32,009 nucleotides of DNA from Verrucomicrobiota bacterium (GTDB lineage Bacteria > Verrucomicrobiota > Verrucomicrobiia > Limisphaerales > UBA11358), in contig JAJPKI010000194.1 of the NCBI GenBank assembly GCA_021323835.1, positions 1-32,009 on the forward strand, read 5' to 3'. Made by a program: the position numbers and the translations under genes. The notes beneath the pieces are model-generated. The model was not told the origin of the DNA. It was given only the letters and a program-made list of their open reading frames with translations, and did no database searches. Shown piece after piece: positions 18,702 through 31,797 of this stretch (within the stretch, counting starts at the first letter, position 1; every line of letters begins with the position of its first letter).

Positions 18702-19091
18702 ATGAAAGGTGTCCATGAAAAACAGATTCCGGCTGTGCAAACGCGGGAAAATTTTTTACAGCCTGATTCAGAAACCGGCAAACGTGAATCCGATCGGCAA
18801 AAAGCGGCTCAAATTATCCGCGCAAAGAATGACGCCGCGACACGTCCGGTTTCGATTAACCTGACCCTTGCCAAAGCGTATTTGCTTGCTGCTGACCCAA
18901 AGTTGATGGAGCGAACCTGGTCGCTTTTGATGGAAGAATTTTGTTCCATCGGCAAAGAATCCACACGGCTGCGCCGGCGTCGGGCAATAAAAAGTTCAGT
19001 TTATGATTCCATCCGAAATAAAAAATTAATTGAGACAACTGGCGATGACCTTCGGCTTGTTCTCAAATCGGGCGGCAACTTTGAACCCTAG
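18702..19091 (+). CDS. Hypothetical protein; possible N-terminal fragment of a tyrosine integrase
   Basis: ATG at 18702 in ORF 18681..19091. The segment LTLAKAYLLAADPKLMERTWSLLMEEF...RRRRAIKSSVYDSIRNKKLIETTGDDLRLVLKSGG resembles, from memory only, the N-terminal core-binding region of PVC-type integrases. No catalytic domain follows. Its stop shares the tetranucleotide CTAG (19088-19091) with the convergent LysR gene. Confidence 0.35.
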   Translation: MKGVHEKQIPAVQTRENFLQPDSETGKRESDRQKAAQIIRAKNDAATRPVSINLTLAKAYLLAADPKLMERTWSLLMEEFCSIGKESTRLRRRRAIKSSVYDSIRNKKLIETTGDDLRLVLKSGGNFEP

Positions 19092-19990
19092 AATAAATTG
19101 GTCGCCGATTCGCACAAGCCGATGAAAGTTTCTTCCGCCAGATTCAATCGCCTGCCGCGCCAATGTAAAATTCCCCAGCGACGCTGAAGCTTTCGTCGTC
19201 CCAACGGCAGGGCCACGAGCGAGCCTTCGTCAATTTCCTTTCGCGCGACCCATTGCGCCAGAATGCTGACGCCCAATCCAAGTTTCACCAATTCCTTCGT
19301 CGCTTCCATGCTGCCGACTTCGATGACGGTATTGAGCACCATTTGCTCGCGCCGAAAATAATCTTCCACGAGTCGGAACGTGACGCTGTTTTTGCTGTAA
19401 AGAATGAAACTTTGTTTCGGAATTTCCGCGCGCTCGATGCGTTTGGATTGCGCCCATGGATGTTGCGTGCCGACGAGAAAAAATAATTCGTCTGCGAACA
19501 ACGGATGAAATTCCAATTGCGGTTCATTTCCCGGATCGAGCGAAAGCGCCAGGTCAATGCGATGCTGCAACAACGACGAAACCATGCCGCGCGTGTCGTT
19601 CGGCTCGATGCTAATCGCGTGTTCGGGAAAACTTTCTTTGAATTCGCGCAACACCGGCGGAATGATGTGCTGGCAAGCCGTCGTGCTCGCGCCCAAACGC
19701 AATCGCCCTTTTCCCCATTTCCCGAGATGCCCGAGCGACTCGCGCACGCCATTCATTTCGCGCAAAATTTTTTGCGCCGATTGCAAAAGCTGTTCGCCCG
19801 CCTGCGTCAGCGCAATTTTTTTGCCCAACCTGTTCAAAAGCAGACAGCCCACATCGCGTTCCAGCGCCTTCATCGAGTGGCTGACGCCCGATTGCGTCAG
19901 ATGAAGCTCGCGCGCTGTCTGCGTGAAACTGCCCGTGCGCGCCAAAACACAAAACGCGCGCAACTGCCTGCTGTCAATCGGTGCATTCAT
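19088..19990 (-). CDS. LysR-family transcriptional regulator (candidate nitrate-assimilation regulator)
   Basis: An internal ATG (complement of 19988-19990) of ORF 19088..20509 gives MNAPIDSRQLRAFCVLARTGSFTQTARELHLTQSGVSHSMKALERDVGCLLLNRLGKKIALTQAGEQLL. This is the canonical LysR wHTH, followed by a substrate-binding domain of about 200 aa. Divergent from the nitrate operon. Confidence 0.9.
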   Translation of the reverse strand: MNAPIDSRQLRAFCVLARTGSFTQTARELHLTQSGVSHSMKALERDVGCLLLNRLGKKIALTQAGEQLLQSAQKILREMNGVRESLGHLGKWGKGRLRLGASTTACQHIIPPVLREFKESFPEHAISIEPNDTRGMVSSLLQHRIDLALSLDPGNEPQLEFHPLFADELFFLVGTQHPWAQSKRIERAEIPKQSFILYSKNSVTFRLVEDYFRREQMVLNTVIEVGSMEATKELVKLGLGVSILAQWVARKEIDEGSLVALPLGRRKLQRRWGILHWRGRRLNLAEETFIGLCESATNLF

Positions 19991-20038
19991 ATATGAATCA
20001 AATTCATTTTTTCCATGCGCATTACGCGGAGCATTCAT
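19985..20038. promoter_or_regulatory. Divergent promoter/operator with ATTCAT/ATGAAT half-site array (LysR T-N11-A box)
   Basis: Half-sites: ATTCAT 19985-19990, ATGAAT 19993-19998, ATTCAT 20002-20007 and ATTCAT 20033-20038. ATGAATCAAATTCAT (19993-20007) is a perfect 15-bp palindrome containing T-N11-A (T19994...A20006). ATGCGCAT is a palindrome at 20015-20022. All lie in the 58-bp gap between the divergent start codons. Confidence 0.55.
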
Positions 20039-20048
20039 CGCGCCAAAA

Positions 20049-21212
20049 ATGAAACATGGCACGTTCGCCGCTAATCTTTCGCGCAGCGATGAAAATTTGC
20101 CGCGCGTGATTAAAAAAATATCCATCGCAAAAACTGCGAGTCCGCATTCCAAAAAATTGCGACTCGGTTTCGTGCCGTTGACCGATTGCGCGCCACTGGT
20201 GATGGCGCAGGAACTTGGCCTGTTCAAAAAATTCGGACTCGACGTTGTTTTGAGCCGCGAACTCGGCTGGGCGACCATCCGCGACAAAATCATCCATCGC
20301 GAACTGGACGCCGCGCACGCCGTCGCCGGAATGCCGTTCGCCGCGACGCTCGGACTTGGCTCCGTCCAATGCGATTGTCTCACCGCACTCGTTTTGAATT
20401 TGCACGGCAACGCTATCACGCTTTCAAACGATTTGTGGGAACGCGGCGTTCGCGACGGCGAGACGTTGCGGAAAGAAATTCTGAAAACGCGCCGCGAAAA
20501 AACGTTCACGTTCGGCGTCGTCTATCCGTTTTCATCGCACAATTTTCTTTTGCGCGGCTGGCTGGCGCGCGTGGGAATTATTCCCGACCGCGACGTGCGC
20601 ATCGTCGTCGTGCCGCCGCCGCAAATGGTCGCGAATCTTAAGGCCGGACATCTCGATGGCTTTTGCGTCGGCGAACCGTGGAATTCCGTCGCCGTGCAAT
20701 CGCGCGTGGGCTGGTGCATCGCCGCGAGCGCGGAATTGGATTTCGGTCATCCGGAAAAAGTTTTGATGGTTCGCGGCGAATTTGCCGGAAAACGAAACGA
20801 AGAACATCTCGCGCTCATTGCCGCGCTGCTTGAAGCGTGCGAATTTTGCGACGCGCCGGAAAATCACGAGCAGATTGTCGCCACACTCGCGCGTCGCGAA
20901 TACATCGGCGCGACGGAAGCAGCATTGCGCCGCAGTTTCAGCGGCGAATTTGATTTCGGCCACGACCTCACGCGCACCGTTCCCGATTTCACAGTTTTTC
21001 ATCGCTACGAGGCCAACGAGCCGTGCGGGAAAAAAGCCGCGTGGGTCATTCAACATTTGCGCGACAGCGGACTTTGCAAAGACGCGAACGCACTAAATTT
21101 CGCGCTCAGCAAAAAAGTTTTTCGCGCGGACATTTTTGAAAGAGCCGTTCGGCTTCACAATTCCAATCCAACTCCAAAAAATGAAACAGAAAAACAAACC
21201 GTCCTCGTCTAA
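20049..21212 (+). CDS. NrtA/NasS-like nitrate/nitrite-binding protein without signal peptide (cytoplasmic sensor candidate)
   Basis: ATG at 20049 in ORF 19923..21212. The N-terminus MKHGTFAANLSRSDENLPRVIKK has no hydrophobic or Tat signal. The core LRLGFVPLTDCAPLVMAQELGLFKKFGLDVVLSRELGWATIRDKIIHRELDAAH and VVPPPQMVANLKAGHLDGFCVGEPWN are paralogous to the next gene (NrtA) and typical of the NrtA/CmpA/NasS family. Confidence 0.85.
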   Translation: MKHGTFAANLSRSDENLPRVIKKISIAKTASPHSKKLRLGFVPLTDCAPLVMAQELGLFKKFGLDVVLSRELGWATIRDKIIHRELDAAHAVAGMPFAATLGLGSVQCDCLTALVLNLHGNAITLSNDLWERGVRDGETLRKEILKTRREKTFTFGVVYPFSSHNFLLRGWLARVGIIPDRDVRIVVVPPPQMVANLKAGHLDGFCVGEPWNSVAVQSRVGWCIAASAELDFGHPEKVLMVRGEFAGKRNEEHLALIAALLEACEFCDAPENHEQIVATLARREYIGATEAALRRSFSGEFDFGHDLTRTVPDFTVFHRYEANEPCGKKAAWVIQHLRDSGLCKDANALNFALSKKVFRADIFERAVRLHNSNPTPKNETEKQTVLV

Positions 21213-22464
21213 TTTTTCACGCCGCGATTTTCTCGGCAAAGCCGCCAAAGGCATCACGCTCACCGCGCTTTTTGCTGGATTGCCTAAATCATGGGTCGGC
21301 AGCGTTTATGCCAGCGACGCTCCGGAAACGGCCGCGCTGAATTTCGGCATGATTGCGCTGACGGATTGCTCGCCCATCGTCATCGCGCACGAAAAAGGAT
21401 TTTTCAAAAAATACGGCATCAATTCCACCGTGACGAAAGGCGCGAATTGGGCGGCCATCCGCGACAATCTTTCGAGCGGCACGATTCAAGCCACGCACAT
21501 GCTCATCGGAATGCCGATTGCAAGCACGATGGGCCTCGCCGGTTCGCCGAAGAAACCGATGATTATTCCGTGGCTGATGAATCGCAATGGCCAGGCGATT
21601 TCACTCAAGACAGAATGGAAAGGAAAAGTTGGAGCGGACCCGAAAGCCTTGATGCCGTTTGTGAAGCAAGCGCAGTCGCTCGGCGAGCCGTTGACGTTCG
21701 CGATGACATTTCCTCCGGGCACGCACGCGATGTGGATGCGCTATTACCTCGGCGCAGGCGGCATCAATCCCGACAAAGATATTTCGCTCATCGTCGTTCC
21801 GCCGGCGCAAATGGTCGCGAACATGAAGATTGGAAAAATGGACGGCTTCTGCGTTGGCGAACCGTGGGGCGCGCGCGCGATTGCCGATGGAATTGGTTTC
21901 ACTTCCGTTTCCACGCAAGACATGTGGCGCGACCATCCCGAAAAAGTTTGCGCGTTTCTTGCCGAATTTGCCGACAAAAATCCGAACACGGTCAAGGCGG
22001 TTTTGAAAGCATTGAACGAAGCGAGCGTATGGCTCGACGATTTGAACAATCGCCCGGAGCAATGCGACATCGTTTCGCGCCCGACTTACATCAATTGCGA
22101 CGCCAAGACAATTCTCGGACGGTTGCAAGGTCACTACGATTACGGCGACGGTCGCAAAATTGAAGACCCGAACTACATGATTTTCAGCAGCCGCAATTGC
22201 AATTATCCGCAGCCGAAATATGCCAAATGGTTTCTCACGCAATATCGCCGATGGGGACTTGTTCACGGCGCGCCGGATTACGACGGCATCGCGAAGCAAG
22301 TCATGCGCCCGGACATTTACGAAGAAGCGATGAAAGAAATCGGCTACACGCACGGCGGCATGAACAACGACAAGGAAACGCTGTTCGACGGCGCGACGTT
22401 CGACCCGACCGGCGATTTGGAGGCTTACGCAAAAAGTTTTGCGGTCAACAACGTGAAAGGCTGA
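21181..22464 (+). CDS. nrtA: Nitrate ABC transporter substrate-binding protein with twin-arginine signal
   Basis: ATG at 21181 gives MKQKNKPSSSNFSRRDFLGKAAKGITLTALFAGL (Tat motif SRRDFLG). NrtA-family core: LNFGMIALTDCSPIVIAHEKGFFKKYGINSTVTKGANWAAIRDNL and VVPPAQMVANMKIGKMDGFCVGEPWG. Overlaps the upstream gene by 32 nt. Confidence 0.9.
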   Translation: MKQKNKPSSSNFSRRDFLGKAAKGITLTALFAGLPKSWVGSVYASDAPETAALNFGMIALTDCSPIVIAHEKGFFKKYGINSTVTKGANWAAIRDNLSSGTIQATHMLIGMPIASTMGLAGSPKKPMIIPWLMNRNGQAISLKTEWKGKVGADPKALMPFVKQAQSLGEPLTFAMTFPPGTHAMWMRYYLGAGGINPDKDISLIVVPPAQMVANMKIGKMDGFCVGEPWGARAIADGIGFTSVSTQDMWRDHPEKVCAFLAEFADKNPNTVKAVLKALNEASVWLDDLNNRPEQCDIVSRPTYINCDAKTILGRLQGHYDYGDGRKIEDPNYMIFSSRNCNYPQPKYAKWFLTQYRRWGLVHGAPDYDGIAKQVMRPDIYEEAMKEIGYTHGGMNNDKETLFDGATFDPTGDLEAYAKSFAVNNVKG

Positions 22465-22465
22465 A

Positions 22466-23251
22466 ATGAAATCGTTCAAATTGGATTGGCTCGTGCTGCC
22501 GCTCATCGGCGCGGGAATTGTTTTGTTGCTCTGGCAAATTTCTTCCGCGACATGGGCAAAAGAATTGCCGTCGCCGCTCAAAACATGGGAGACGAGCAAA
22601 CCTTACATCGTCGAGCCGTTCGCCAAACGCGGCGAAATGGACCAGGGCATTTTGCGATTCACGTGGTATTCGCTGATTCTCGTCGCAAAAGGTTACGCGC
22701 TCGCGCTGCTCATCGGCACGCCGCTTGGATTTTTTCTTGGACTTTCAAAAACGTTCACAAAAATTTTCGACCCGATAATCCAAGTGCTTCGTCCCGTTTC
22801 GCCGCTGGCATGGCTGCCGCTCGGATTGGTTTTGTTCATGGGCGCGGGAAAAAATGCTTCCGAACTCGGCGCGCTGTTCACCATCGCCATTTGCGCGATG
22901 TGGCCGACGGTTTTGAACACCGCCGTCGGCGTGCGCGCGATTCCGCAGGATTATTTGAACGTCGCCAAAGTTTTGAAACTCTCGCGCACGAAAACACTTT
23001 TCAAAGTCCTGATTCCTGCGGCGCTGCCGTATATGTTCACGGGATTTCGTTTGAGCCTCGGCATCGCGTGGCTCGTCATCGTCGCGGCTGAAATGCTCAC
23101 GGGTCGCCCCGGCGTCGGCGGATTTCTCTGGCAGGAATACAACTCGCTCATCTACGAGCACATCATCCTTTGCATCATCACGATTGGTGTCGTGGGTTTT
23201 GTCCTCGACCGATTGATGAGCTTGGCGGAAAGCAAATTCAAAACAGCATAA
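22466..23251 (+). CDS. nrtB: Nitrate ABC transporter permease
   Basis: 261 aa with about 6 TM segments. The binding-protein-dependent transport inner-membrane signature region is AKVLKLSRTKTLFKVLIPAALPYMFTGFRLSLGIAW. The ATG lies 2 nt after the nrtA stop. Confidence 0.9.
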   Translation: MKSFKLDWLVLPLIGAGIVLLLWQISSATWAKELPSPLKTWETSKPYIVEPFAKRGEMDQGILRFTWYSLILVAKGYALALLIGTPLGFFLGLSKTFTKIFDPIIQVLRPVSPLAWLPLGLVLFMGAGKNASELGALFTIAICAMWPTVLNTAVGVRAIPQDYLNVAKVLKLSRTKTLFKVLIPAALPYMFTGFRLSLGIAWLVIVAAEMLTGRPGVGGFLWQEYNSLIYEHIILCIITIGVVGFVLDRLMSLAESKFKTA

Positions 23252-23256
23252 TTGCA

Positions 23257-24168
23257 ATGGCCTTTCTCGAATTAAAAAATGTCAGCAAAGGTTTTGGTGC
23301 GAACGGAAGTCGCGCTGAAGTTTTGCGCGACATCAATCTGCAAATCGAAAAAGGCGAATTCGTCGCCATCGTCGGATTTTCCGGCGCAGGCAAAACGACG
23401 TTGATTTCGCTGATTGCCGGTTTGCTCAAAGCCGACAGCGGAAATCTGACGCTCAACGATTTAGAAATCACCGCGCCCGGCCCTGACCGCGGAATTGTTT
23501 TCCAAAATTATTCGCTGCTGCCGTGGCTTTCGGTGTTTGAAAATATTTTTCTCGCGGTCGAAGCCGTGAATCCCAATTGGTCGCCGCAAAAGAAAAAGGA
23601 GCACGTCGAAAAATACATCGCGATAGTTAACCTCACACCCGCGCGCGACAAAAAGCCGGGCGAACTTTCCGGCGGCATGAGGCAGCGCGTTTCCGTTGCG
23701 CGCGCGCTGGCGATGAATCCGCAAATTCTTTTGCTCGACGAACCGCTTTCGGCGCTTGACGCGCTGACCCGCGCGACATTGCAGGACGAAATTTCCCGCA
23801 TTTGGTCGGAAGATAAAAAAACCGTCGTGATGATTACCAACGACCCTGACGAAGGAATTTTATTGGCCGACAGGATTATTCCATTGAGCGCCGGGCCGGG
23901 CGCGACGCTCGGGCATGCGATTCAAATTGATATTCCGCGTCCGCGCGACCGTAAAGCCATCAATCACGAGCCGCGCTTCAAGGAAATTCGCCGTGAAATC
24001 ATTGAGTATTTGCTCAATTCAAAAGGCGAGCACCACGCGACGCTGACGAAAAAATTAATTTTGCCGGACATCGAGCCGGAAGATTTGTCGCTGCCGCGCC
24101 ATGCGCTCGGCGGTCGAACAAAACCGATTCGCCGCCGCGAAGTGAAAGAAATCGAGGTGAGCGCATGA
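23257..24168 (+). CDS. nrtC: Nitrate ABC transporter ATP-binding protein
   Basis: ATG at 23257 in ORF 23170..24168. Walker [11 protein letters not shown]-loop, signature [15 protein letters not shown], Walker [13 protein letters not shown]. It lacks the NrtA-like C-terminal regulatory domain of cyanobacterial NrtC. Confidence 0.88.
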
Positions 24169-25046
24169 GCGATTATCTCGTCATAGATAATCTCACGAAG
24201 ATTTATCCGACGCCGAAAGGCGACGCAGTCATCGTCAAGGATTTCAATCTTCGAATCAAAAAAGGCGAATTCGTCTGCCTCATCGGTCATTCCGGTTGCG
24301 GCAAATCCACTGTGCTTTCGATGGTCACCGGACTAAACGAAATCACCGGCGGCGGAATTATTTTGGCCGGGAAAGAATTGGTCGGGCCGGGACCGGATCG
24401 CGGAATCGTTTTTCAATCGCCGTGTTTGTTGCCGTGGATGACGGCGTTTGAAAACGTGATGCTCGGTGTTGACCAGGTTTTTTTCACGGCGGACAAAGCC
24501 GAGCGGAAACAAATCGCGGAATATTATTTGAGTGTCGTTGGCCTTGCCGATTCGATGCACAAAAAGCCTGCGGAACTTTCTCAAGGAATGCGCCAACGCG
24601 TTGGCATTGCCCGCGCATTTGCGCTTTCGCCGAAAATGTTGCTGCTCGATGAGCCGTTCGGAATGCTCGATTCGCTCACGCGGATGGAATTGCAGCAGGT
24701 GCTCATCGAACTGTGGCGCAGAGACAAAAAAACCGCGTTGATGGTGACGCACGACGTGGACGAAGCGCTGTTTCTTGCCGACCGAATCGTTTGCATGACC
24801 AACGGGCCGGAAGCCGAAGTTGGTGAAATTCTTGAAGTGCATTTTCCGCGTCCACGCGACCGCAAAGCCGTGCTGGAGCATCCCGATTACTACAAATTGC
24901 GCGAGCATCTCATCGCGTTCCTCGAAGAGCGCGCGCACAAAAAATTGCCAAAGACGAAAATTGATTTGCCGAAGTCATCACCGCCGCAAAATCCAAACGG
25001 TTCCGCCCATCGCAAAGCTTTGAACGTTTTGCTCAATCACGCTTAA
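24165..25046 (+). CDS. nrtD: Nitrate ABC transporter ATP-binding protein (second ATPase)
   Basis: Walker [10 protein letters not shown], signature [15 protein letters not shown], Walker [13 protein letters not shown]. The start overlaps the upstream stop (ATGA). Confidence 0.88.
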
Positions 25047-25053
25047 TCAACCT

Positions 25054-26583
25054 ATGCCAAACCTAAAAACTAAATCCATGATGCCAACCTTGAAAACTCT
25101 CTCCGCCGGCGCGCTGGTGCTCGCCGCGCTCGAACAAGCCCACGCGCAATACACGCCGCCACCGCCGCCCACGCCGTTTCAGGGATTTCTCAACGAATAC
25201 TTGCGCGCGCAAAATCCCTACATGAATCAATGGGATTTTGGCGGCACCGACCGTTTGCGCTTCGAAGACAAATCCGGTTTTGCCATCCAAGGTCACACCG
25301 GCTCGGTGGATTTTCGCGACCACGGCGCGGACATGGTGAACGATTATTTTTTGAACCGTCTGCGCTTTCATGTCGGCTACACGGAAAAATGGTGGAGCGC
25401 TTACGTTGAACCGCAAAGCAGCGTGGCATTGAGCGACGAGCGCTTCGCTTACGCCAACGCACCCGCGATTCCGGGCACGGTGAAGCGAAAGGAAAACGGT
25501 CCGGAAGCCGACGCAATTGATTTGCATCAGGCGTATTTCACGCTCGGCAATCACAAAGAATTTCCGCTCTCGCTCAAAGCCGGACGGCAGGAATTGTCTT
25601 ACGGCGAAGAACGGTTGGTCGGCGCTTTCGGCTGGAACAATGTCGGACGTTCATTCGACGCGGCGAAAGTCCGCTGGCAGAATGAATTTTTCGGCGCAGA
25701 TTTTTTCACCGGCTATCCGGTAATTCCTGAAAATGGAAAATTTATTGACGTGGACAACACGCATGATTGGTTCTCGGGCATTTATGCCACGAGCACAAAG
25801 ATTCCCACGACAATTCTCGATGTTTATTTTCTTTCGCGCAACGCCGACCGCAAAGCGATTAACACTGAGCCATCGCCGCAATTTCCGCAGCCGACCGCGC
25901 GCGATATTTACACCATCGGCGGACGATTGAAATCCAAGCCCGGCGAATTGGGTAATTTTGATTATTCACTCGAGGGCGCGTATCAATTTGGCGATTTCGC
26001 CGACCCGACAAAACCGGCGCTGACCGCTCCGCGATTGAAACAGGACGCATTTATGTTTGTCGCGCAAGGCGGCTACACCTTCGCTGATTTATGGGCCACG
26101 CCGCGGCTCGGGCTTGAATATGATTATTCTTCCGGCGACGGCAATTCCGCCGACGGCATGCACGGCACGTTCGACAATTTATTTCCAACGAACCACAAAT
26201 TTTACGGCTACATGGATTTCATTTCGCTGCAAAACATTCAGGACGTTCGCGGCGAACTCACGCTCAAACCGACGACGCGTTTGAGCGTCGCGCTCGAAGG
26301 CCATGGCTTCTGGCTCGCGAATACGCACGATTATTTTTACAACGTTGCCGGTGCGCCGCGAACAACGGGCGGCGCCAGTGGTTACGGAATTCATTCCGGT
26401 TACAGTCCTTTCGTTGGAACCGAATTGGACTTGATTGCCGGTTACGCGCTCACACGCTATGCGCAAATCGAAGGCGGTTACGGCCACTTTTTTACCGGCA
26501 AATATATCCAGCAATCACTTGTCAGCGCTGGCGGCGAGCGCGACGCGGATTACGCCTATGTGCAATTTACACTTAATTTTTAG
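25054..26583 (+). CDS. Outer-membrane beta-barrel porin of the alginate-export (AlgE-like) family
   Basis: Signal peptide ends LVLAALEQAHAQ. The family-typical segment is LHQAYFTLGNHKEFPLSLKAGRQELSYGEERLVGAFGWNNVGRSFDAAKVRW. Alternating beta-strand pattern throughout. The C-terminus ends YAYVQFTLNF (terminal aromatic residue). Confidence 0.8.
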   Translation: MPNLKTKSMMPTLKTLSAGALVLAALEQAHAQYTPPPPPTPFQGFLNEYLRAQNPYMNQWDFGGTDRLRFEDKSGFAIQGHTGSVDFRDHGADMVNDYFLNRLRFHVGYTEKWWSAYVEPQSSVALSDERFAYANAPAIPGTVKRKENGPEADAIDLHQAYFTLGNHKEFPLSLKAGRQELSYGEERLVGAFGWNNVGRSFDAAKVRWQNEFFGADFFTGYPVIPENGKFIDVDNTHDWFSGIYATSTKIPTTILDVYFLSRNADRKAINTEPSPQFPQPTARDIYTIGGRLKSKPGELGNFDYSLEGAYQFGDFADPTKPALTAPRLKQDAFMFVAQGGYTFADLWATPRLGLEYDYSSGDGNSADGMHGTFDNLFPTNHKFYGYMDFISLQNIQDVRGELTLKPTTRLSVALEGHGFWLANTHDYFYNVAGAPRTTGGASGYGIHSGYSPFVGTELDLIAGYALTRYAQIEGGYGHFFTGKYIQQSLVSAGGERDADYAYVQFTLNF

Positions 26584-26604: not shown

Positions 26605-26630
26605 CGCGCCCGCTCGCAAAAACGGGCGCG
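26605..26630 (+). terminator. GC-rich stem-loop between porin and reductase genes (terminator or attenuator candidate)
   Basis: CGCGCCCG (26605-26612) pairs with CGGGCGCG (26623-26630) around a 10-nt loop. It is preceded by a second small hairpin, GCGACA (26583-26588) / TGTCGC (26599-26604). The T-tract is weak. Confidence 0.4.
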
Positions 26631-26651: not shown

Positions 26652-28433
26652 ATGAAAATTGAGCCGCTCATTCCTGAAACTGCGCCATTCAATGGCGAGC
26701 AACGCCTTTGGCTTAACGGCTATGTCGCCGGATTGCTCGCGGGGAAAAATTTTGTTCCGGCGAATCAAAATGGTTCGGGAAAAAATGCCGCGACGATTCC
26801 GTTGCTTATTTTATTCGGCAGCCAGACCGGCACGGCGGAAAAATTGGCGAAGCAAATTGCAAAAGAATCGAAATCCTGCGGCTGCAATTCGCGTGTCGTA
26901 GATGCCAACGAACATGCAAAAATTGATTGGAGCAAAGAAACGAATTTGCTCGTCGTCACCAGCACTTACGGCGACGGCGATATGCCGGACAATGCGCAAA
27001 ATTTTTGGGAATGGCTGCAAACCGACGCCGCAAAATCGCTCGCACATCTAAATTTTTCTGTCCTCGGGCTCGGCGATACGAATTACGAACATTTTTGTGC
27101 TGCCGGAAAGAAAATTGACGCGCGTCTGGAACAAATTGGCGCGAAACGGATTCATCCGCTCGCCGATTGCGATTTGGATTACGAAGCGAAGGCAAAAAAT
27201 TGGACGAACGATGTGTTGACTGCGTTCGCGCCGGAAAAAAATCTCACGCAAAGACGCGAAGACGCAAAAACCGTAGAAATAATAGAATCTCTTCGCGCCT
27301 CTGGGACTTTGCGTGAGGAATTTTCCAAATCAAACCCATTTCCCGCCCGTCTGCTGACAAATTACAGATTGAATTCCAATGGTTCACAAAAAGAAACGCG
27401 TCATTTCGAAATTTCACTGGAAGATTCCGGCCTGAATTACGAAGTCGGCGATGCACTCGGAATTTTCCCAAAAAATTGTCCCGAACTCGTCGCGGACATT
27501 TTGCGCGCGCTCAATTTTTCCGGTGATGAAATGGTCTCGCTAAATAACAACGGCGAAATTCCAATTCGTAAAGCGCTGAAGGAATTTTATGACATCACTA
27601 AACCGTCGCCGGAACTTTTGAAATATATCGGCGAACGAAATTCTGTTTTAGGCGAATTGCTTTTGCCGGAACGCAAGGACGATTTGAAAAAATTTCTTTG
27701 GGGACGCGAAATCATTGATTTGTTGCTCGCCACGCCCGAAGTAAAATTTTCGCCCGACGAATTTGTCGCGCTGCTGAAAAAACTCGCGCCGCGTCTTTAT
27801 TCGATTTCGTCCAGCCCAAAAACGCATGCCGGGCAAGTGCATTTGACCGTCAGCATCGTTCGCCACGAATCGCACGGACGCAAACGCAAAGGCGTCGCTT
27901 CCACTTTTCTCGCCGACCGTGCGATGGAAAATCCAATTCCAGTTTTTGTGCAAACATCATATGGGTTTCGTCTGCCCGCTAACGGTGAAACGCCAATCAT
28001 CATGGTCGGGCCTGGAACAGGTGTCGCGCCATTTCGCGCATTTTTGCATGAACGTCGCGCTGTTGGCGCGAAGGGAAAGAACTGGCTGTTCTTTGGCGAA
28101 CAGCGCGTCGCGACGGATTTTTATTATCGCGACGAACTGGAAAAAATGTTTTCCGACGCCCATCTCACAAAATTGTCCACGGCATTTTCGCGCGACCAAT
28201 CGGAAAAAATTTATGTGCAGCACCGGATGCTTGAGCACGCCACTGAATTGTGGTCATGGCTCGAAAGCGGCGCGCATTTTTACGTTTGCGGCGATGCCTC
28301 GCGCATGGCGAAGGATGTGGACGACGCGCTGCATAAAATTATTGAAACGGCGGGAAACAAAAGCGCGGACGATGCGAAAGCTTATGTCGCGAAATTGAAA
28401 TCGGAAAAGCGTTACCAACGCGACGTGTATTGA
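26652..28433 (+). CDS. Diflavin (FMN + FAD/NADPH) reductase, CysJ / cytochrome-P450-reductase-like
   Basis: Flavodoxin motif LLILFGSQTGTAEKLAKQIA. FAD motif RLYSISSSP. NADPH motifs IMVGPGTGVAPFRAF and FYVCGDASRMAKDV. C-terminal YQRDVY. An N-terminal extension of about 45 aa carries PFNGEQRLWLNGYVAGLLAG. Confidence 0.88.
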   Translation: MKIEPLIPETAPFNGEQRLWLNGYVAGLLAGKNFVPANQNGSGKNAATIPLLILFGSQTGTAEKLAKQIAKESKSCGCNSRVVDANEHAKIDWSKETNLLVVTSTYGDGDMPDNAQNFWEWLQTDAAKSLAHLNFSVLGLGDTNYEHFCAAGKKIDARLEQIGAKRIHPLADCDLDYEAKAKNWTNDVLTAFAPEKNLTQRREDAKTVEIIESLRASGTLREEFSKSNPFPARLLTNYRLNSNGSQKETRHFEISLEDSGLNYEVGDALGIFPKNCPELVADILRALNFSGDEMVSLNNNGEIPIRKALKEFYDITKPSPELLKYIGERNSVLGELLLPERKDDLKKFLWGREIIDLLLATPEVKFSPDEFVALLKKLAPRLYSISSSPKTHAGQVHLTVSIVRHESHGRKRKGVASTFLADRAMENPIPVFVQTSYGFRLPANGETPIIMVGPGTGVAPFRAFLHERRAVGAKGKNWLFFGEQRVATDFYYRDELEKMFSDAHLTKLSTAFSRDQSEKIYVQHRMLEHATELWSWLESGAHFYVCGDASRMAKDVDDALHKIIETAGNKSADDAKAYVAKLKSEKRYQRDVY

Positions 28434-28435
28434 GC

Positions 28436-30142
28436 ATGAGCAATCTTCCCATCCAACACGTCAACGGCGAGCCGCTCAATGACGAGCAGCGAAAATATCT
28501 CGAAGGATTTTTCGCCGGTCTCGCTGCGCACGGCGTTTCGTTTGGTGATGTCGACCCAATGCCGGTGACGGAAAAAAAAGTTTCGTTCGACGATTTGATT
28601 TTTGAGGAGCGCGTGAAACGCGAATTGCATCCGCTCGACGCTTACGACCAGATTCTCGAAAACGCCGCAACAAATAAAGCGCCGGACAAAGAGGAAATTT
28701 TTCGTTTCAAATGGAACGGACTTTTTTTTCTCACGCCAAATAAAGAAGCGTTCATGGCGCGATTGCGGATTCCCGGCGGCCAATTAAAAACTTTTCAACT
28801 GCGCGAATTGGCAAATGTCGCGAAAGAATTGACGAGCGGCTACGTGCAAATCACGACGCGCGCGAATTTTCAGATGCGTTTGATTCAGCCGAAAGACGCG
28901 CCGGAAGTTTTACGGCGCATTCAATCCATCGGTTTGCACACGCGCGGCGCGGGCGCGGACAACATCCGCAATCTCACGGCGAATCCGACTGCGGGAATTG
29001 ACCCGCACGAATTAATTGACGTGATGCCGTTTTGCCACGAACTCGCGCAAATCATCATCAACGACCGTTCGTATTACGATTTGCCGCGCAAGTTCAACAT
29101 CGCCTTCGACGGCGGCGGACTCATCGGCACGGTTGAAGATACGAACGACATTGGCGCGAAAGCCGTGAAAATCGGCGACGAAATTTTCTTTCGCATCGCG
29201 CTCGGCGGCGCAACCGGACACAAATCGTTCGCGCGCGACCTCGGCGTTTTGGTGAAACCGTCGGAATTGAACAAAGTGATTGCCGCGATTGTTCGCATTT
29301 ATATTGCCAACGGAAATCGCGGCGACCGAAAAAAAGCGCGGCTGAAACATTTGCTCGAAACATGGTCGCTGGAAAAATATCTCGGCGAGGTGGAAAAAAT
29401 TCTTGGCTACAAATTGCAACGCGCTCCGGCGGACTTGAAATTGGAATTTTCAGATTCAAAATTTCCGCATTCGCATCTCGGCGTTCACTCGCAAAAGCAA
29501 AAAGGCTTGAATTACATTGGCGTCGCGATGCCGGTCGGCCAAATCACGCCGAAACAAATGCTGCGCGTTGCGGAGATTGCCGACCTTTACGGTTCAGGCG
29601 AAATCCGACTGACCGTCTGGCAGAATTTTATCATTCCAAATGTTCCCGATGCTTACGTCGAAACCGTAAAAAAGGCGTTGCGCAAAATCGGTTTCGACAC
29701 GCAACAAAGTTTGTTGCGCGGCGGATTGGTCGCTTGCACGGGAAATTCATATTGCAAATTTGCGCAATCGAACACAAAACGCCACGCGCTCGAACTCGCA
29801 GATTATCTCGACAAAAAATTTTCGCTCGACGCGCCCATCAACATCCATCTCACCGGCTGCCCGAATTCTTGCGCGCAACATTACATGGGCGACATCGGTT
29901 TGCTCGGCGTGAAAGTCCGCGGCGAAGACGGCTACCACGTTTTTGTTGGCGGCGGCTTCGGGAAAAATCAGGCGGTCGGACGGCAAATTTTTTCCGGCAT
30001 CACCGTCAACGATTTGCAGCCGACGTTGGAAAAAATGTTGAAAGGTTATTTGCGGCGGCGCGAGGCGGGCGAAACATTTCAAAAATTTACGCAACGACAC
30101 GAGTTGAACACGTTGCAGGCAATTTTCACCAACGACGAATGA
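28436..30142 (+). CDS. nirA: Sirohaem/[4Fe-4S] nitrite (or sulfite) reductase haemoprotein, NirA type
   Basis: ATG at 28436. Two nitrite/sulfite-reductase repeats. Cluster/sirohaem Cys motifs are CTGNSYCKFA and TGCPNSCAQHYMGDIGLLG. The nitrite assignment comes from context within the nitrate cluster. Confidence 0.85.
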   Translation: MSNLPIQHVNGEPLNDEQRKYLEGFFAGLAAHGVSFGDVDPMPVTEKKVSFDDLIFEERVKRELHPLDAYDQILENAATNKAPDKEEIFRFKWNGLFFLTPNKEAFMARLRIPGGQLKTFQLRELANVAKELTSGYVQITTRANFQMRLIQPKDAPEVLRRIQSIGLHTRGAGADNIRNLTANPTAGIDPHELIDVMPFCHELAQIIINDRSYYDLPRKFNIAFDGGGLIGTVEDTNDIGAKAVKIGDEIFFRIALGGATGHKSFARDLGVLVKPSELNKVIAAIVRIYIANGNRGDRKKARLKHLLETWSLEKYLGEVEKILGYKLQRAPADLKLEFSDSKFPHSHLGVHSQKQKGLNYIGVAMPVGQITPKQMLRVAEIADLYGSGEIRLTVWQNFIIPNVPDAYVETVKKALRKIGFDTQQSLLRGGLVACTGNSYCKFAQSNTKRHALELADYLDKKFSLDAPINIHLTGCPNSCAQHYMGDIGLLGVKVRGEDGYHVFVGGGFGKNQAVGRQIFSGITVNDLQPTLEKMLKGYLRRREAGETFQKFTQRHELNTLQAIFTNDE

Positions 30143-31797
30143 TTGCGCCTGCCACAGAAAATTCGCGCACGTTGATTGACGAATTGCTCGTCGAGCAGCG
30201 CACGCTGACAGCGGTGGAACGCTTCTCGCAGCACCACGACCGCAACGGCCATTCAGAAAAAATTTACAGCGCGCTGATGCCGACACGTTCGCCAAATCCC
30301 GGCGAGCAATACGCGTTTCAAGTGAACCTCGACGCCTGCTCCGGTTGCAAAGCGTGCGTCGCCGGTTGCCATTCGCTGAACGGCTTGGACGAAAATGAAA
30401 CGTGGCGCGAAGTCGGATTGCTTCACGGTGTCGCGGAAGAAAAATCATTTCAGCAAACCATCACGAGCGCGTGTCATCACTGCGTTGACCCCGGCTGTCT
30501 CAACGGTTGCCCGGTGAAAGCCTACGACAAAGACCCAGCGACGGGCATCGTGCGGCATCTCGATGACCAGTGCATTGGCTGCCAGTATTGCGTAATGAAG
30601 TGTCCGTATGAAGTGCCGAAGTATTCTGAAAAACTTGGCATTGTCCGCAAGTGCGACATGTGCGTGAGCCGCCTTGCCGTCGGCGAAGCGCCCGCGTGCG
30701 TGCAATCATGTCCGAACGGCGCAATCAAAATCACATTGGTAAATCAGTCGGAAATCAGGACGCAATTTCAAAACGGTGAAGCGCAAAAAAATTTCCTCGC
30801 CGATTCTCCAAATCCAAAAATCACTTTACCGACAACGCGCTACATTTCAAAACGTCACTTGAACGGAACTATTTTTGCCGCCGACCGCGACGTGCCGCGA
30901 TTGGACAATCCGCATTGGCCGTTAATTTTCATGCTGGTTTTTACTCAAGCGGCGGCTGGAATGTTCTTGGCAGCGGCAATCGCGCAAAATCTCGAAACAA
31001 AATTTTTGGAACTCGCGGCGTTTGTAATTTTGAATTTCGGACTGCTCGCCGCGCCGTTGCATCTGGGCAAACCGCTGAAAGCGTGGCGCGCATTTCTGGG
31101 TTGGCGCACAAGTTGGTTGAGTCGCGAAATTATCGCTTTCAACACGTTTGCTCCGCTGGCCGCCGCCGCGACTGCGCTTGCGTGGTTGCCATTTCTCGCA
31201 GAAAAATTTCCGAGACTCGGTGATTTGCTTCAAAAAATTCCGGCAGCATTTTTACCGCTCGAAAAATTTCAGTTGCCGTTGGCGATTTTCGCCGCCGCGA
31301 TTGGCCTGTGTTGCGTTTTCATTTCCGCCATGGTTTATGTGGACACCAAACGCCCATTCTGGTCACAACGACATTCCTTCGGTGCATTTTTTGGGACGAC
31401 GCTCCTGCTCGGCGCGACATTTTCAGCCGCGACCTTTGCATGGCTCGGCAATTTGCATTTTGCGCGGCAATTCGCTGTTGTCGCGCTCGTCGTTCGCGCA
31501 ATGCTTTTCGTCTGGCGGCGATTGGAAATTCGTTTCGCTTTCAGTAATCCGGCAAGTCCGATCCATTTGAACGCCCGCGCCATTCGCGAATTGCTTCCAT
31601 GGACGCCGCGGACGCGAATAATTTTATTTATCGCTTCCACAGTTTTCGGTTTGCTCGCCATTGCGGACATTGCAAATGCGGTGATGATTTGGGCCAGTGC
31701 GACCGTAGTAACAACTTTCATTTCAGAAATTGTCGTCCGCTACGTTTTCTTCCGCGCCGGCGCGGGCAAAAAAATGCCCGGAGGAATTGCCGCGTGA
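30139..31797 (+). CDS. Fusion protein: DmsB-like four-cluster 4Fe-4S ferredoxin domain + DmsC/NrfD-like polytopic membrane anchor
   Basis: The ATG at 30139 overlaps the nirA stop (ATGA). Cys groups: CSGCKACVAGC, CHHCVDPGCLNGCP, CIGCQYCVMKCP and CDMCVSRLAVGEAPACVQSCP. About 8 TM helices follow, including the DmsC-like LHLGKPLKAWRAFLGWRTSWLSREI. No signal or Tat motif at the N-terminus (MIAPATENSRTLIDELL). Confidence 0.85.
   Translation: MIAPATENSRTLIDELLVEQRTLTAVERFSQHHDRNGHSEKIYSALMPTRSPNPGEQYAFQVNLDACSGCKACVAGCHSLNGLDENETWREVGLLHGVAEEKSFQQTITSACHHCVDPGCLNGCPVKAYDKDPATGIVRHLDDQCIGCQYCVMKCPYEVPKYSEKLGIVRKCDMCVSRLAVGEAPACVQSCPNGAIKITLVNQSEIRTQFQNGEAQKNFLADSPNPKITLPTTRYISKRHLNGTIFAADRDVPRLDNPHWPLIFMLVFTQAAAGMFLAAAIAQNLETKFLELAAFVILNFGLLAAPLHLGKPLKAWRAFLGWRTSWLSREIIAFNTFAPLAAAATALAWLPFLAEKFPRLGDLLQKIPAAFLPLEKFQLPLAIFAAAIGLCCVFISAMVYVDTKRPFWSQRHSFGAFFGTTLLLGATFSAATFAWLGNLHFARQFAVVALVVRAMLFVWRRLEIRFAFSNPASPIHLNARAIRELLPWTPRTRIILFIASTVFGLLAIADIANAVMIWASATVVTTFISEIVVRYVFFRAGAGKKMPGGIAA

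Follow-up and report, generated by a model that had tools for sequence, protein, structure and literature searches.

The 32,009-nt stretch of DNA analysed here (the window; contig JAJPKI010000194.1 of assembly GCA_021323835.1, from a member of the Verrucomicrobiota) encodes, as adjacent genes on its forward strand, a CysJ-like NADPH diflavin reductase of 593 residues (RED, 26652..28433) and a NirA-family sirohaem/[4Fe-4S] nitrite reductase of 568 residues (NirA, 28436..30142), and both proteins begin with a copy of the same short motif. The reading we favour, with a probability of roughly 0.55, is that the pair constitutes a dedicated NADPH:nitrite oxidoreductase, in which tethered helices of the CysJ type would join electron donor and acceptor in one complex.

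The pattern common to the two N-termini is [FL]-[STN]-x-E-Q-x-x-[WY]-L-x-G-[FY]-x-A-G-L, found at residues 12-31 of RED (PFNGEQRLWLNGYVAGLLAG, nt 26685-26744) and residues 13-32 of NirA (PLNDEQRKYLEGFFAGLAAH, nt 28472-28531). These lie within slightly longer segments at RED residues 7-31 (IPETAPFNGEQRLWLNGYVAGLLAG, 26670..26744, forward strand) and NirA residues 10-32 (NGEPLNDEQRKYLEGFFAGLAAH, 28463..28531, forward strand), both supported by conservation among homologues and a predicted helix, and in RED also by a match to CysJ. The first-pass annotation of this DNA had written both motifs exactly as they are found, with nucleotide coordinates placed 3 nt early, and its description of a CysJ-like reductase gene followed after 2 nt by a NirA-type gene is borne out by the open reading frames (ORFs) and their domains: the RED stop codon (TGA, 28431-28433) is separated by GC from the NirA ATG at 28436. 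By BLASTP of the N-terminal segments, RED 12-30 and NirA 13-31 are identical at 11 of 19 positions (E=3e-6), and at full length (E=0.002) the N-terminal segment is the only significant match between the two proteins. The profiles of the two motif families also align, with a probability of 98.3% and E=2e-14 (hhalign), an E-value that is somewhat optimistic given the anchoring of the alignment on four shared columns. Numbered from the Gln as position 0, the conserved columns of NirA are [LF]-4, [STN]-3, E-1, Q0, Y3, L4, G6, F7, F8, A9, G10 and [LVI]11, and those of RED are I-10, P-9, A-6, P-5, F-4, [TSN]-3, E-1, Q0, R1, W3, L4, N5, G6, [FY]7, L8, A9, G10 and L11.

The motif is not covered by Pfam in a domain scan of RED and NirA. 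Among 9091 ORFs from 85 loci, matches to the motif hidden Markov models (HMMs) at E<0.01 occurred only in ORFs of the RED, NirA and NasA classes and in one NirA-like fragment, with the HMM of the NirA motif alone picking up 58 RED ORFs at this threshold. A motif-profile search of a 5.8-billion-protein collection returned only fragments of 29-74 residues, which were truncated or frameshifted N-termini of NirA and RED, and no new family of carriers. In one locus (L080, 2317-2619), a small ORF between RED and NirA contains a second NirA-like N-terminal motif (INNDQKLYLDGFMMGLQSKGVSFGDF) and a fragment resembling the C-terminus of RED; a past duplication or an error of assembly may account for it.

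The copy in RED appears to be the ordinary assembly segment of CysJ in a one-helix form, corresponding to the second helix of the Escherichia coli CysJ peptide. Residues 10-29 of RED align in register with E. coli CysJ 25-44 (BLASTP of N-termini, E=0.003), alignments of RED to the NCBIfam cysJ profiles start at its residue 10-14, and a combined motif HMM scores 22.8, 16.1 and 14.2 bits on the CysJ N-termini of Skermanella, E. coli and Sphingobium respectively. In E. coli, octamer formation requires CysJ residues 1-52, which also suffice for it, even on SUMO as a fusion partner, and Y39, F40, Q22 and Q47 are critical for octamerisation (bioRxiv 10.64898/2026.04.08.717228). Y24-V25 of RED fall opposite CysJ Y39-F40, as do F25-F26 of NirA via the RED-NirA alignment, each pair being flanked by the glycines of a GxxxG pattern. 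The unusual point is that the acceptor protein also carries a copy of the CysJ-type helix. The first-pass annotation had held that occurrence of the motif in lone CysJ would count against its proposal, and the reductase half of the motif does occur in the CysJ of E. coli and Skermanella, in which the motif HMMs give no match on the N-termini of the partner CysI proteins; this identifies the motif, rather than dismissing it. Homology between the NirA motif and the CysI N-terminus (KLTDAERMK...YLRGTI) was rejected on the same absence of HMM matches to either CysI. In the cryo-EM structure, this CysI segment packs on the hemoprotein itself, and other CysI residues contact CysJ (PMC11195156).

Within the Verrucomicrobiota, conservation was assessed in 80 loci from a scan of species-representative genomes, spanning 50-86% NirA identity, in which all ORFs were classified. 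The motif is present in 77/77 visible NirA N-termini, and in 61/61 visible N-termini of the adjacent RED homologues. RED lies directly upstream of NirA in 72 of 77 loci, the remainder comprising one with a NasA::RED fusion, in which the motif is internal, and four with no RED in view. Beyond the phylum, a NirA search of 1.84 billion cluster representatives, of which 150 representatives were examined, confined the motif to the nearest NirA clade, of at least roughly 38% identity, and found none in the representatives of classical ferredoxin-dependent NirA, Sir-like or CobG-like proteins. All ten motif-bearing or motif-degenerate NirA from diverse metagenomes (L085-L090, L092-L094) adjoin a motif-bearing CysJ-family flavoprotein, with the flavodoxin domain present or absent, and with an N-terminus of the form IP-x-x-APF-x-x-x-QR-x-W/Y-L-N-G-x-L-A-G. 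The same is true of the motif-bearing NirA of Methylobacterium bullatum (L001), the genus that supplied the single close NirA relative in a plasmid collection. Neither of two motif-less NirA relatives (L091, and L098 in a sulfate-assimilation cluster) has a flavoprotein neighbour. The adjacency of RED and NirA is conserved across phyla and, given its retention in every visible N-terminus of both families and in all of the diverse pairs, the motif is not a local accident. The suggestion of the first-pass annotation that it is a docking or oligomerisation handle is therefore strengthened by how closely the motif tracks a motif-bearing flavoprotein neighbour (10/10 diverse and 72/77 verrucomicrobial loci, and missing in 2/2 ferredoxin-type relatives), and qualified by the motif not being unique to this pairing.

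The partner flavoproteins outside the Verrucomicrobiota vary in their composition. Often they are without the flavodoxin domain (L001 10776-12371; L085 3839-5428; L087 2159-3790; L090 8959-10596), and these have a Cys-rich segment (QQDCGQCGYNC...) between the motif and the FAD/NAD module, with a weak match to the Pfam 'FeS' family (PF04060) in L001. L001 and L088 encode an additional Pyr_redox_2 protein ahead of NirA. In L089 (329-3148 and 7001-10551) and L090 (7001-13672), the NirA-flavoprotein pair adjoins a nitrite reductase of the NirB/NirD type, such that each cluster encodes two different assimilatory nitrite reductases, raising the question of a division of labour between them.

The motif also extends beyond the RED/NirA pair, cytoplasmic NasA being a third carrier in sister loci. 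In L002, L005, L017, L027 and L073, the C-terminal tail of NasA has two degenerate copies (for example ...DDFTSEQKKFLDLFLIGIS...IPETAPFTPSQREHINRMLAQF), the first NirA-like (DDF[ST]xEQKxxL) and the second RED-like (IPETAPF[ST]xxQRxHIN). These tails score 15-22 bits against the RED HMM (independent E-values of 3.5e-5 to 6e-3), and are located at about 13870-14067 in L002 and about 6270-6465 in L005, adjoining the RED-NirA pair. Natural fusions follow a related arrangement. A NasA::NirA fusion of 1272 residues (P0204; L086 4703-8521) has a NirA-type motif at its junction, and the RED encoded separately after it also bears the motif; a NasA::RED fusion of about 1300 residues (L024 912-4817) has the RED motif internally at its junction, and is accompanied by a separate NirA with its own copy; and in a mycobacterial NasA::CysJ fusion the junction contains two motif-like helices, with NirBD as the nitrite reductase. 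Judged from these sequences, the overall pattern appears to be that each separately encoded soluble redox partner carries the helix as a tag, and that fused partners keep the tag at the joint.

NirA passes the 'NirA family protein' model NF007126 (720.8 against a cutoff of 523), with residues 12-566 matching profile positions 5-589 such that the N-terminal extension is included, and falls below the cutoffs of both the ferredoxin--nitrite reductase model NF007125 (398.8 against 594) and the CysI model (150 bits against 757). Pfam recognises two NIR_SIR and two NIR_SIR_ferr domains, and the [4Fe-4S]-sirohaem ligands Cys434, Cys440, Cys475 and Cys479 are invariant in 40 sequences. Spinach nitrite reductase (NiR; 2akj) matches NirA at E=2.5e-82 from residue 84 of NirA, and the N-terminal motif is outside the region common to NirA and ferredoxin-dependent NiR. 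The anion site of NirA is PRKFN, at residues 217-221, which is the same in 82/82 homologues and aligns with PRKWN of spinach NiR, whereas the E. coli CysI site is PRKFK, at residues 213-217 (K-F-K, compared with K-F-N in NirA), with K215 and K217 serving as anion ligands (PMC11195156). NirA thus has an anion site of the nitrite-reductase type, with an Asn at the position of Lys217 in sulfite reductase (SiR), as in plant NiR (K224/N226, K-x-N); the specificity role of Asn or Lys at this site is the one assigned by published structural work on NiR and SiR. Similarity to CysI starts only at NirA residue 216-247, and profile and structure-sequence comparisons did not find in NirA the N-terminal 80 residues of CysI, with their h-Leu40 and h-Ile65-Lys73 contact elements. 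Hence the first-pass view of a CysJ-like protein paired with a hemoprotein of the NirA type, not the CysI type, in a nitrate operon holds, whereas its view that the two assemble like sulfite reductase does not, because CysI binds the ferredoxin-NADP+ reductase-like (FNR) domain through an unrelated N-terminus (PMC11195156).

The flavoprotein has the FMN-FAD-NAD domain order of CysJ, with Flavodoxin_1 at residues 53-178, FAD_binding_1 at 223-419 and NAD_binding_1 at 451-557 (Pfam), and matches the E. coli CysJ structures 6efv and 9c91 at E of about 1e-119 (phmmer). It falls below the equivalog cutoff of the cysJ model TIGR01931 (639.8 bits against 668.15) and that of NF008197 (510.7 against 838). 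Its score of 502.2 exceeds the curated cutoff of 432 for NF004859, 'sulfite reductase subunit alpha', with most of the match in residues 195-593. Its partner is not a cysI in a sulfur-assimilation context, as this partner passes the NirA-family model and the neighbouring genes are for nitrate transport.

In both proteins, structural models predict a terminal helix that about 15-25 disordered linker residues separate from the catalytic body. The AlphaFold2 (AF2) model of NirA, from a 40-sequence alignment, has a mean predicted local distance difference test (pLDDT) score of 89, and places a helix at residues 16-31 (pLDDT 75-80) and the start of the body at about residue 55, with the intervening linker below 50 at residues 33-43 and low to about residue 50. 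The tether so defined by low pLDDT (residues 33-52, 28532..28591, forward strand) is 17-36 residues long in Verrucomicrobiota, longer in other phyla and much longer in some. The AF2 model of RED (mean pLDDT 75) has a helix at residues 15-29, a linker with pLDDT below 50 at 31-48 and the first flavodoxin strand from residue 50; its low-complexity tether (residues 32-48, 26745..26795, forward strand) is unconserved in sequence and varies between 13 and 23 residues among homologues.

These features suggest a mechanism in which electrons would pass from NADPH to the FAD and then the FMN of RED, and onwards to the [4Fe-4S]-sirohaem centre of NirA. The helix is about 16 residues long; its Gln is invariant, and it also has an aromatic residue and presents a G-[FY]-x-A-G (GxxxG) face. 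It would allow NirA to pack into the same helical-bundle core as the helices of RED, analogous to the core of the CysJ octamer. The tethers would then hold acceptor and donor together, keeping NirA within reach of a mobile, swinging FMN domain, and in the sister operons NasA could join the core through its two C-terminal copies. The flow of electrons from RED to NirA, the hetero-association of the helices and the stoichiometry of the complex are the elements of this scheme that we infer. A broader version is more tentative and less probable: the helix of about 20 residues may be a portable assembly tag for the whole pathway, such that RED, NirA and cytoplasmic NasA co-assemble in one hub sending NADPH electrons to both steps of nitrate assimilation, with the alpha8beta4 SiR of E. 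coli as the exceptional system, where the tag was retained by the donor alone.

Several observations weigh against a dedicated complex built on shared helices. The N-terminal similarity between RED and E. coli CysJ is weak (16 bits, with 7/20 identities), and the N-terminus of RED is one helix where that of E. coli CysJ is two. E. coli SiR relies on a different interface, formed by the unrelated N-terminus of CysI on the FNR domain of CysJ (PMC11195156), so a CysJ-type system does not require a shared helix. At least two of the loci with no RED in view are genuine exceptions, a motif-bearing NirA having no reductase within 8 kb upstream in L012, or within about 7 kb upstream plus 2.3 kb downstream in L079. 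Co-occurrence inside one phylum may in part represent shared ancestry. Finally, the nearest characterised relative, the 625-residue NirA of Bradyrhizobium, was judged to be ferredoxin-dependent, with the donor presumed (PMC4724949).

The same loci L012 and L079 would suit an alternative in which the helices act in parallel, each self-assembling only its own protein, with electrons transferred through a separate interface that is transient or CysI-like. The E. coli CysJ peptide alone does form homo-octamers, and each side keeps its family-specific residues, W and N5 in RED but Y and F8 in NirA. Yet homo-oligomerisation does not account readily for the motif being missing from ferredoxin-dependent NirA relatives and tracking a motif-bearing flavoprotein, nor for NasA tails joining one NirA-like segment to one RED-like segment, nor for the motif being present both at the junction of fusions and on the partner that is still encoded separately, and we regard it as unlikely. 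Similarly improbable is that the helix is a docking peptide, by which NirA (and NasA) would bind not other helices but a surface of the flavoprotein, on its FNR, connection or FMN domain, or else a common third protein, leaving the copy in RED as an intramolecular or competing ligand. The helix-plus-tether layout would suit such a peptide, conservation in RED and the NasA tails is highest in the extended IPExAPF segment preceding the helix, which resembles a linear motif, and the N-terminus of the E. coli hemoprotein does bind the FNR domain. However, the E. coli peptide assembles on SUMO without any flavoprotein domain, the CysI residues that contact the FNR domain are in a different and unrelated segment, and no third gene was conserved with the pair in the loci examined.

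Two further explanations have still lower probabilities. Verrucomicrobia are known to have microcompartments, and a terminal helix of about 18 residues on a poorly conserved linker, recurring on several enzymes of one pathway, has the layout of an encapsulation peptide, by which an amphipathic helix on a flexible linker would send these enzymes to a compartment or membrane. Such a targeting role seems very unlikely, however, as no shell or encapsulin genes were present in the roughly 95 loci examined, and the motif extends to Alphaproteobacteria and to the soluble SiR of E. coli, where it is octamer-forming. Least plausible of all is that the shared motif is a relic of evolution that no longer has a function, for instance a duplicated 5' end of the neighbouring gene. 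The genes are adjacent, such that a local duplication could have copied the segment, and the pairwise match is just 19 residues; but near-invariant columns have survived in both families where overall identity is 50-86%, and also between phyla, and the motif is retained within fusion proteins.

As in the E. coli CysJ/CysI system (alpha8beta4), the genes for a diflavin reductase and a sirohaem/[4Fe-4S] hemoprotein are adjacent and co-oriented, and the reductase has the same three domains, with a putative N-terminal assembly segment that bears a G-[YF]-x-x-G face and is linked to the flavodoxin domain by a flexible tether. RED differs from E. coli CysJ in having a single helix rather than a helix-turn-helix, and in falling below the cysJ equivalog cutoff. 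The hemoprotein differs from CysI in being NirA-type (K-F-N, in a nitrate operon) and in having a reductase-type helix of its own, whereas CysI is without the helix and binds the FNR domain through its unrelated 80-residue N-terminus. The ferredoxin-dependent NirA of plants and cyanobacteria (2akj, 3b0g) resemble the window's NirA over the catalytic core, from about residue 55 onwards, and have the same K-x-N site and four cluster cysteines. The window's NirA is extended by an N-terminal helix with its tether, and in place of reliance on ferredoxin there is a gene for a diflavin reductase directly upstream. In the NasN-type fusions of nitrate reductase and sulfite reductase flavoprotein in Mycobacterium, a CysJ-type module likewise serves nitrate assimilation, with two motif-like helices before the flavodoxin, although there the acceptor is fused rather than tethered non-covalently, and the nitrite reductase is a NirBD without the motif. 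The docking domains of polyketide synthases and non-ribosomal peptide synthetases, and the encapsulation peptides of microcompartments, are functional analogies only, being short terminal helices on flexible linkers with no sequence relation, and in neither case is there a corresponding megasynthase or shell context.

The gene pair itself is already in databases. The two proteins of the window pass the cutoffs of the annotation families NF007126 and NF004859, whose names, 'NirA family protein' and 'sulfite reductase subunit alpha', are also those given to close homologues in public records; the families assign no function to the pair. In open-access papers and bioRxiv, no description was found of the pair as an NADPH nitrite reductase, of its electron donor, of the shared motif or of the motif on NasA. 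In Bradyrhizobium, Flp is required for growth on nitrate but not on nitrite, and the gene beside nirA is undiscussed (PMC4724949). The Pseudomonas aeruginosa NirA (PA4130) is reported to be ferredoxin-dependent and in a predicted operon with PA4129, with a diflavin partner unmentioned (PMC8092218).

The two genes lie in a nitrate-assimilation operon, which extends along one strand from 19923 to the end of the window, and comprises transport genes, a porin, RED, NirA and a gene for an iron-sulfur/DmsC protein; the rest of the window contains PATR repeats, N-methyl pilins, and GH95 and GH2 genes. Close homologues of the window's proteins are named Verrucomicrobiae or Verrucomicrobiota. The operon begins with a nitrate ABC transporter (19923..25046, forward strand) of two NrtA-like binding proteins, an NrtB permease and two NrtC/D ATPases, with matches above the cutoffs of TIGR01183 (ntrB) and TIGR01184 (ntrCD), and weak SsuA/NMT1-like matches for the binding proteins. 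The tandem ORFs of these binding proteins (19923-21212 and 21136-22464) overlap by about 75 nt as listed, and the first is also overlapped by a long antisense ORF (19088-20509). Between the transporter and the reductase genes is an outer-membrane porin of the Alginate_exp family (25054..26583, forward strand; PF13372, E=1.8e-62), which may be an outer-membrane channel for nitrate or nitrite; a weak match to the same family also adjoins a nitrate-reductase cluster in L091. An 8-bp perfect GC-rich hairpin (cgcgcccg ... cgggcgcg) with a 10-nt loop, at 26605-26630, lies in the 68 nt that separate the porin gene from RED; it is without a T-run and for this reason may be a processing or attenuation element. 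Promoter and terminator scans returned sites no more numerous than in shuffled sequence.

Downstream, a DmsB-like 4Fe-4S dicluster protein fused to a DmsC-like membrane anchor (30139..31797, forward strand; Pfam Fer4_11 and DmsC) has its ATG overlapping the stop codon of NirA (ATGA). In most related loci this gene is then followed by a molybdopterin subunit, and the window ends before that position. The arrangement suggests that the DmsB/DmsC-like protein and the molybdenum subunit constitute a membrane-anchored, possibly quinol-linked, assimilatory nitrate reductase. Neither component of this nitrate reductase of window-type loci has the motif in a motif-HMM scan.

If the helix does serve as an assembly tag, it could be used in the engineering of multi-enzyme redox complexes, and the proteins described here offer natural variants in which an assembly helix is found on the acceptor enzymes. 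They bear on how CysJ-type flavoproteins assemble and engage their partners, which has been a question in E. coli SiR for 50 years. This widespread bacterial NirA family is currently annotated as 'ferredoxin-nitrite reductase', and its neighbour as 'sulfite reductase subunit alpha'; hence an NADPH-dependent pair, joining the two proteins in the assimilation of nitrite, would correct both annotations.

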